Assembly (NCBI RefSeq): GCF_054482525.1
Contig: NZ_CM137006.1
Direction: 5' to 3' (one strand)
DNA: 64,000 bases
Each line of letters begins with the position of its first letter. Positions within the stretch are counted from its first letter, which is position 1. This document shows positions 42,120 through 42,527 of the stretch, one piece after another. The notes under the pieces were generated by a model. The model was given only the letters and a program-made list of their open reading frames with translations. It did no database searches and was not told where the DNA came from. The position numbers and the translations under genes are program-made.

Positions 42120-42527
42120 TTACTCTAATGGTTTTATTAATTGTAAATTTTTAAATGTCATGCTTAATAAGCCATCAGAAAAATAAAGAAAAAATTTATA
42201 TATCCTTTTGTTTTTTAATTTCTTTATATACCCATTACTTATATTACCTGACTTGTGATTATCGATTAACTCAGCAGAATCCATAGCGAACACTAAATCA
42301 TCTACATCAGAAAATTCAACTATCATTTTTTCCCTAATGTTCTCATTTTTATAAATGTCAATAAATAACGTCATGTTAAAATGAGATTCTTTGAATGTCG
42401 TTTTTACTTCTAACAAAACCCCATCATGCCAGTCAATTGAACTCACAATGTCAAAATCGCTCATTATATAATCTCCATTATCCGTTTTAATCATGGAGTA
42501 ACAACGTTTGCAGGTATTGACCACCAA
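42120..42527 (-). CDS. putative Rhs immunity protein (start uncertain; likely an internal Met)
   Basis: small AT-rich ORF immediately 3' of the Rhs toxin tip, overlapping the Rhs stop; canonical toxin-immunity position. Confidence 0.5.

Follow-up and report, generated by a model that had tools for sequence, protein, structure and literature searches.

The gene at positions 42120-42464 on the minus strand of the window, a 64,000-nucleotide segment of an Escherichia coli chromosome, very probably codes for a cytoplasmic immunity protein cognate to the toxin at the C-terminus of the adjacent PAAR-Rhs protein, as judged from sequence comparison and from a predicted structure. An RhsI-type immunity gene had been proposed at this place in an earlier note on the same DNA, and the proposal is supported by the position of the gene on the same strand, its linkage to the toxin tip, a predicted fold resembling that of the immunity protein PIM7, the small, acidic and cytosolic nature of the product, and purifying selection. 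At the rhsE position, the window contains an auxiliary vgrG-rhs module, flanked by narW-narV-yddE-nhoA-yddH and, at its other end, by ansP-yncE-pqqU. Within the module, vgrG, the Rhs gene, the candidate immunity ORF and the transposase gene of an ISAs1/H-repeat element follow one another on the minus strand (Table 1).

Table 1. Features of the vgrG-rhs module and of the candidate immunity gene, in positions of the window.
Feature	Position	Strand	Remarks
Candidate immunity gene	42120-42464	-	114 aa plus stop codon TAA (42120-42122); identical to RefSeq WP_001279013.1, labelled 'hypothetical protein'
Upstream extension of the maximal ORF	42465-42527	-	TTG at 42527; alternative ATG at 42494, in an ATGA overlapping the Rhs stop codon
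GGAG ribosome-binding site	42473-42476	-	8 nt 5' of ATG 42464; read directly from the sequence
Terminator-like hairpin	42053-42084	-	14-bp stem and T-rich run; begins 36 nt past the ORF stop codon
Full-length PAAR-like Rhs	42491-46645	-	1384 aa; Pfam RHS_repeat, DUF6531 and RHS
End of the Rhs core (...WIDPLGL)	42875-42895	-	Toxin tip (127 aa, Rhs residues 1258-1384) begins directly after
toxN, N-terminal subdomain of the toxin tip	42656-42874	-	72-73 aa (Rhs residues 1258-1330); Cys/His-rich; unannotated
C-terminal tail of the toxin tip	42494-42655	-	Rhs residues 1331-1384; matches Pfam Tox-WTIP (PF15654)
Hydrophobic helix of the tail	42557-42613	-	
RVIR motif of the tail	42554-42565	-	
WWSIP motif of the tail	42512-42526	-	
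Cognate vgrG, upstream of Rhs	46712-48856	-	In-frame TAG at 47045-47047
ISAs1-family (H-repeat) transposase	40638-41774	-	Pfam DDE_Tnp_1 and DDE_Tnp_1_assoc; ydcC in PCN033; downstream boundary of the Rhs element

The earlier note had described an open reading frame of 135 aa, and a frame of this length was indeed found on the minus strand at 42120-42527, starting with TTG; the chance of encountering 135 stop-free codons at the local base composition is approximately 1.5e-6. Two internal methionines had been offered there as the probable starts, and both ATGs, at 42494 and 42464, are present. We found the start at 42464 to be the best supported, on the basis of its spacing from the GGAG sequence, the annotation of strain PCN033, in which RefSeq/PGAP calls exactly the 114-aa product WP_001279013.1, and the N-termini of orthologs, which line up with Met 42464 (orthologs from other taxa start 8-11 residues ahead of a conserved WHDG motif, which likewise corresponds to 42464). 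The 10-residue extension obtained by starting at 42494 is far less conserved than the body of the protein, with 4 of its 10 residues identical in a homolog of 82% overall identity, and homologs at the loci L008, L010 and L013 begin 20-37 nt past the toxin stop codon; both observations also favor 42464. No Shine-Dalgarno sequence was found in the sequence before ATG 42494. The extension at 42465-42527 is probably not translated as part of the candidate immunity protein. The overlap with the Rhs stop codon that had been reported for the ORF holds for the maximal frame, which includes the last 37 nt of rhs (stop codon TGA at 42491-42493), but not for the likely gene, whose ATG lies 26 nt downstream of that stop.

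The AT-rich composition ascribed to the ORF was also evident, with a GC content of 27-28% compared with approximately 41-44% in the toxin tip and approximately 65% in the Rhs core. The hairpin that follows the gene folds at -21.8 kcal/mol (z = -5.9 relative to shuffled sequences), and it likely marks the end of the rhs-immunity transcription unit. A promoter scan returned 6 sites, with 5.5 expected from shuffled sequence, and thus gave no sign of an internal promoter. Further downstream, an ORF of 42 aa at 41852-41980 on the minus strand (MNIQSLLEHIPIILD...) lies just upstream of the ISAs1 transposase gene; it is similar to the N-terminus of the transposase, and a second H-repeat element may have left it behind. 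An AT-rich stretch at 39990-40640 (31-38% GC), unannotated in PCN033, separates yddH from the ISAs1 element. It contains minus-strand ORFs of 57 and 81 aa, neither with a Pfam match, and the end of the 57-aa ORF resembles, by eye only, the C-terminus of a GNAT acetyltransferase.

Comparison of the ORF with homologs of 82%, 64% and 46% identity gave dN/dS values of 0.135, 0.123 and 0.150, respectively, which indicates a coding sequence maintained by selection rather than a frame that is open by chance. A word-index search retrieved 23 close relatives with at least 63% identity, and approximately 106 clusters (formed at 50% identity) reached E<=1e-3 in an exhaustive profile search, with lengths of 105-130 aa in nearly all of them. 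In an alignment of 74 sequences, H13, D14, G73 and G98 were invariant and W12, R44 and N69 nearly invariant, and the consensus contained the motifs WHDG (residues 12-15), ELxDNxxAGNI (approximately residues 65-75) and DG (97-98). The candidate immunity protein is acidic, with a pI of 5.3 (family median, 5.26), and it has no hydrophobic or transmembrane segment and no signal peptide. In agreement with the remark in the earlier note that the translation carries no recognisable motif, scans of the ORF against Pfam and NCBIfam gave no family above threshold, as did scans of 14 and of 74 family members. The best Pfam match of the ORF was sub-threshold (DUF6981; E 0.029, 14.8 bits against a cutoff of 26), and so were the matches of family members to DUF6258 (4 of 14; E 0.016) and to a YxiG-like family (3 of 74; E 0.0047). 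All of the 110 relatives found in a large protein database were unnamed or annotated as 'hypothetical', and had no Pfam domain. The ORF belongs to a family that has neither a name nor a Pfam or NCBIfam model.

Orphan copies that consist of the immunity gene only are typical of immunity genes. In the present family, P0024 is a stand-alone member with no effector, and two tandem paralogs of 110 and 112 aa (L028, 2610-2942 and 2975-3313) lie downstream of a TetR-family gene without a toxin, and look like an immunity-only pair. A 42%-identical homolog (L005, 5001-5345; also L006 and L007) stands alone after genes for an aminotransferase and a GNAT acetyltransferase, beside luxC/luxE-like genes, and this arrangement is kept on three independent contigs. 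The members of a large, distant branch (P0165-P0220, 23-30% identity) retain WHDG, R44, SGNI and G98, and are found in a conserved fur-fabA-fabB-(114 aa)-fabI-katG neighbourhood with no toxin near, on contigs of up to 1.8 Mb (for example L035 4001-4345, L036 3777-4121 and L039 4001-4345). This fabB/fabI branch may be a long-fixed orphan, or may have another role. Since WHDG, R, SGNI and G persist in this branch without a toxin, these motifs may be determinants of the fold and not contacts with the toxin.

We then considered the linkage of the ORF to the toxin tip. Among 5426 complete E. coli genomes, the ORF was present in 403 and the tip in 401, a nearly one-to-one co-occurrence, always on the chromosome and almost always in a single copy, and these carrier counts are clonal and do not represent independent events. 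Among the best 60 matches, at least 46 genomes had a fusion of the tip with a full-length Rhs, as judged by a single alignment piece, and 43 of these 46 fused single-piece matches had no net indel; in a 44th fused genome, SW4848, 1276 nt were matched over 1280 query positions, and the region of the ORF and the tip had no indel. A second arrangement was an orphan cassette, in which a 576-nt fragment of the tip and the ORF lie behind a different Rhs tip and its 132-aa immunity gene, as seen in APEC O78, cq9, LD39-1 and TW14425. The orphan ORF was intact in cq9 and LD39-1, and carried a deletion of 1 nt, annotated by PGAP as 'frameshifted', in APEC O78 (L023, 7001-7344) and TW14425 (L026, 5501-5844); the toxin fragment is a pseudogene in both of the latter. 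The 344-nt form of the ORF that results from the 1-nt deletion was found in 17 of 29 evenly spaced full-length E. coli matches. This frameshift allele leads to a 99-aa product in which the last strands are missing (P0015, 295 member sequences), and that most E. coli carriers have it indicates that the ORF is dispensable beside a tip that has become a displaced pseudogene. Retention of the immunity gene thus goes with a toxin in an expressed position, whereas the gene often decays beside a displaced pseudogene toxin. In E. coli N3 (L027, 1300-5474), the Rhs gene bearing the tip is a pseudogene, with a frameshift and an internal stop, and the ORF is intact and 100% identical to that of the window.

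The toxin tip itself is made up of two dissimilar parts. The match to Tox-WTIP (E=2e-13, 50.7 bits against a cutoff of 25) is confined to the last 40 residues of the tip, and covers positions 40-79 of the profile; RVIR and WWSIP lie in this stretch, which comes after one hydrophobic helix. The single most hydrophobic 19-residue window of the tip has a Kyte-Doolittle value of 1.3, and the 72 aa ahead are hydrophilic and unrelated to the Tox-WTIP profile. This N-terminal subdomain, which we call toxN, contains the invariant elements W, CGxGCRIRID, RHLHWEC, G..GE.G, SHG, P, CA and GF, with four invariant cysteines. Searches of Pfam with seven toxN sequences gave nothing at E<=10, PDB sequence searches with the tip and with the toxN profile gave no meaningful relative, and toxN as the query of a word-index protein search gave 12 short fragments and missed the long Rhs proteins, so that this search said nothing on domain architecture. 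In the open-access literature, we found no paper on the tip or the ORF; the term 'Tox-WTIP' occurred only in Zhang et al. (2012), and 'PF15654' in none.

Outside E. coli, the tip and the ORF were found as an orphan cassette in an unrelated metagenomic Rhs array (L002, L003). When 100,044 species genomes were scanned using the alignment of the tip, 7 loci were obtained (from Citrobacter, Paraburkholderia, Pseudoxanthomonas, Lysobacter, Rhodanobacteraceae, Ignatzschineria and a gammaproteobacterial MAG), and hmmsearch detected a member of the ORF family immediately 3' of the tip in all 7. Most of the loci that were seeded with the ORF had a toxN tip upstream, orphan cassettes of tip and ORF included, and distant homologs with 23-45% identity to the ORF of the window still lay after Rhs or VgrG-Rhs tips with toxN. 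Tips made of toxN and a WTIP tail, at the end of VgrG-Rhs fusions, precede P0027 (38% identity, Paraburkholderia) and P0030 (42%); P0039, P0045 and P0106 follow Rhs tips with toxN and a tail that is Pro-rich or of a different, Gly/Ala-rich hydrophobic kind, with no RxxR or WxTIP motif; and P0090 follows a degraded remnant of toxN and tail. The family follows toxN at L014, L018, L019, L020 and L032, where the tails have no WTIP motifs, and at L013, where there is no hydrophobic helix. Because toxN is conserved across loci whose tails are swapped or absent, sequence comparison points to toxN as the constant partner of the ORF family, and to the WTIP tail as an interchangeable appendage.

Identity to the window was 52-92% for toxN, 18-67% for the tail and 22-46% for the immunity protein, and toxN is far more conserved across genera than either the tail or the immunity partner (mean identity of 62% as against 33%). 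A correlation between toxN identity and immunity protein identity (r = 0.67, 55 pairs) was considered as a sign of co-evolution and was discarded, since shared phylogeny alone explains it.

These observations bear on a competing reading, in which the ORF still confers immunity, but against a pore-forming toxin: the hydrophobic tail with its RxxR and WxSIP motifs would be the toxic element, and the ORF product would block its insertion or the pore. The tip does match Tox-WTIP and both signature motifs are present, and Tox-WTIP has been classed among the pore-forming toxins, with two transmembrane helices and the motifs RxxR and Wx[ST]IP, and with no immunity protein listed (Zhang et al., 2012; PMC3482391). 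Moreover, the partner tips of the family mostly terminate in a hydrophobic segment of one kind or another. Known immunity proteins directed against membrane-active toxins are usually membrane proteins, however, whereas the ORF protein is soluble and acidic, without a membrane segment. The occurrence of the family beside toxN tips that have no WTIP motifs, or no hydrophobic helix, also argues against the tail as the target, as does the much faster divergence of the tail relative to toxN. We therefore consider immunity to a pore-forming tail improbable, and favor immunity directed against the toxin tip by way of toxN.

The structure of the ORF protein was predicted using AlphaFold. The model obtained from 74 sequences had a pLDDT of 94.6 and a pTM of 0.86, with all five models at 93 or above; a model from a shallow alignment was of poor quality, with a pLDDT of 67, and searching with its fold was uninformative. 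The 74-sequence model comprises, in order, a helix (residues 3-9), four strands (15-24, 29-38, 44-52 and 56-61), a helix (63-68) and a further four strands (75-82, 89-95, 98-104 and 106-110). The predicted model matches the fold of PIM7 (PDB 8OWU, chains D and E), at 9% identity. The match is one of fold: a search of the PDB with the 74-member profile gave no chain at E<=10, and a single-sequence search of the PDB with the ORF gave chance matches only. An uncharacterised protein of Neisseria gonorrhoeae (PDB 5V77) was also compared with the ORF protein, and showed 10-12% identity.

PIM7, an immunity protein validated by experiment, is the partner of PT7, a polymorphic DNase toxin of Bacillus cereus (PDB 8OWU; Levy lab, bioRxiv 10.1101/2021.10.19.465003). 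PT7 is a metal-dependent DNase of novel fold against which PIM7 protects cells; PIM7 covers the catalytic pocket of PT7, and most of the salt bridges are formed via D17 of PIM7, at the tip of the alpha1-betaA loop, which contacts catalytic residues (bioRxiv 10.1101/2021.10.19.465003). The WHDG motif of the ORF family, with the invariant H13-D14, falls in the equivalent alpha1-betaA loop, a correspondence of position only. We also searched all PDB sequences, including the PT7 chains of 8OWU, with the toxN profile, and obtained only chance matches to dodecin (E ~2). The analogy to a nuclease is therefore weak, as the toxN profile matches neither PT7 nor any other solved protein.

The predicted fold, being that of an immunity protein, also weighs against the possibility that the ORF product is an accessory protein or chaperone of the effector, which would, for example, shield the hydrophobic tail or help in loading, and is not an immunity protein at all. 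The tip does have a hydrophobic C-terminal helix, and T6SS effectors with transmembrane segments are known to need chaperones. Known chaperones and adaptors of the T6SS track the N-terminal loading region of the effector and are encoded upstream, whereas the ORF goes with the C-terminal tip, also where the cassette is an orphan and has no N-terminus, and members of the family are also found standing alone or in tandem without an effector. A chaperone function is thus very unlikely, and cognate immunity remains the reading that we adopt.

Whether the module is active in the strain represented by the window is a separate matter. The vgrG gene upstream of Rhs is split by the in-frame amber codon (context TCG TAG ATC), which is CAG in PCN033 and APEC O78; the PCN033 copy of vgrG is annotated as frameshifted instead. 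In PCN033, the corresponding gene, vgrG2, was reported not to be expressed in the laboratory, and its deletion gave no antibacterial phenotype (PMC6363058). Delivery of the Rhs protein may be impaired by the amber-split vgrG, and, given both this codon and the unexpressed vgrG2 in PCN033, the whole vgrG-rhs-ORF module may be silent in the window strain. The least probable of the readings that we weighed takes the ORF of this strain for a decaying or non-functional remnant, preserved through descent, unexpressed and with no present role: the dominance of the frameshift allele in E. coli, the nonsense codon in vgrG and the reported lack of vgrG2 expression in PCN033 (PMC6363058) would all be in keeping with it, but the allele of the window is full length, the ORF is intact in essentially all genomes with a fused tip, the dN/dS is 0.12-0.15, and a good ribosome-binding site and a terminator-like hairpin are present.

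Under the cognate immunity reading, the immunity gene would probably be co-transcribed with rhs, and would be translated from its own GGAG and ATG, past the rhs stop codon. The small, acidic and beta-rich product, predicted to consist of an N-terminal helix followed by a curved sheet, would bind the soluble toxN subdomain, and this binding would keep the toxin inactive in the producer as well as in sibling recipients that receive it via the T6SS. By analogy with PIM7, inhibition would most likely occur through steric occlusion of a conserved polar site of the toxin (Asp, His, Glu and Cys), with the invariant WHDG loop, which connects helix 1 to strand A, as the candidate plug. It is plausible that the toxin activity is that of a metal-dependent enzyme tethered by a C-terminal anchor, a suggestion drawn from the conserved residues of toxN and the analogy of the immunity protein only. 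A broader proposal, which we put forward tentatively and regard as somewhat doubtful, is that Tox-WTIP Rhs tips are not simple pore-formers: the toxic module would be toxN, possibly a metal-dependent enzyme that acts on the cytoplasmic side, the WTIP and other hydrophobic tails would serve as exchangeable anchors in the membrane, and the ORF would found a new immunity family with the PIM7 fold that acts via the WHDG loop, one branch of which would have become fixed long ago beside fabB/fabI in other bacteria.

The analysis provides a probable function for a gene that is labelled hypothetical in approximately 7% of complete E. coli genomes. The ORF product is the first candidate for an immunity partner of Rhs tips of the Tox-WTIP class, for which none was listed by Zhang et al. 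(2012; PMC3482391), and the focus moves from the membrane tail to the overlooked and highly conserved soluble toxN as the part of the tip that is likely to be toxic or regulated. The PIM7 fold, described for T7SS/LXG systems of Firmicutes, would be extended to the T6SS Rhs systems found in proteobacteria. Apart from toxN and the PIM7-type fold, the locus very probably encodes an ordinary Rhs toxin-immunity pair, a well-known kind of system.

The immunity factors of the pore-forming or depolarising T6SS effectors Tse5, Ssp6 and VasX (Tsi5, Sip6 and TsiV2, respectively) are membrane or periplasmic proteins. A factor of this type would be the expected partner of a toxin of the pore-forming class, and the ORF protein differs from it in having no hydrophobic segment or signal peptide. 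The tip resembles described Tox-WTIP toxins in carrying the RxxR and Wx[ST]IP motifs and in being part of a proteobacterial Rhs protein, as Tox-WTIP is found on such proteins; it differs in that the Tox-WTIP profile describes the tail only, and that the toxN subdomain ahead of the tail is in no Pfam model. The partners of the two similarly folded immunity proteins also differ, since PT7 is carried on LXG/T7SS proteins of Firmicutes and of some Proteobacteria, whereas the probable partner of the ORF is a Cys/His-rich domain on a T6SS Rhs protein. RhsI proteins form many families, one for each type of toxin, and the ORF would add to these a family as yet without a name or model. With the RhsI-type genes of the rhs-CT/rhsI systems of E. 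coli, Dickeya and Salmonella, the ORF has in common the gene order, the strand, the AT-rich composition and the co-inheritance with a polymorphic tip, and it also resembles them in the displaced orphan cassettes of tip and immunity gene that lie downstream of the main rhs gene, beside H-repeat/ISAs1 elements.
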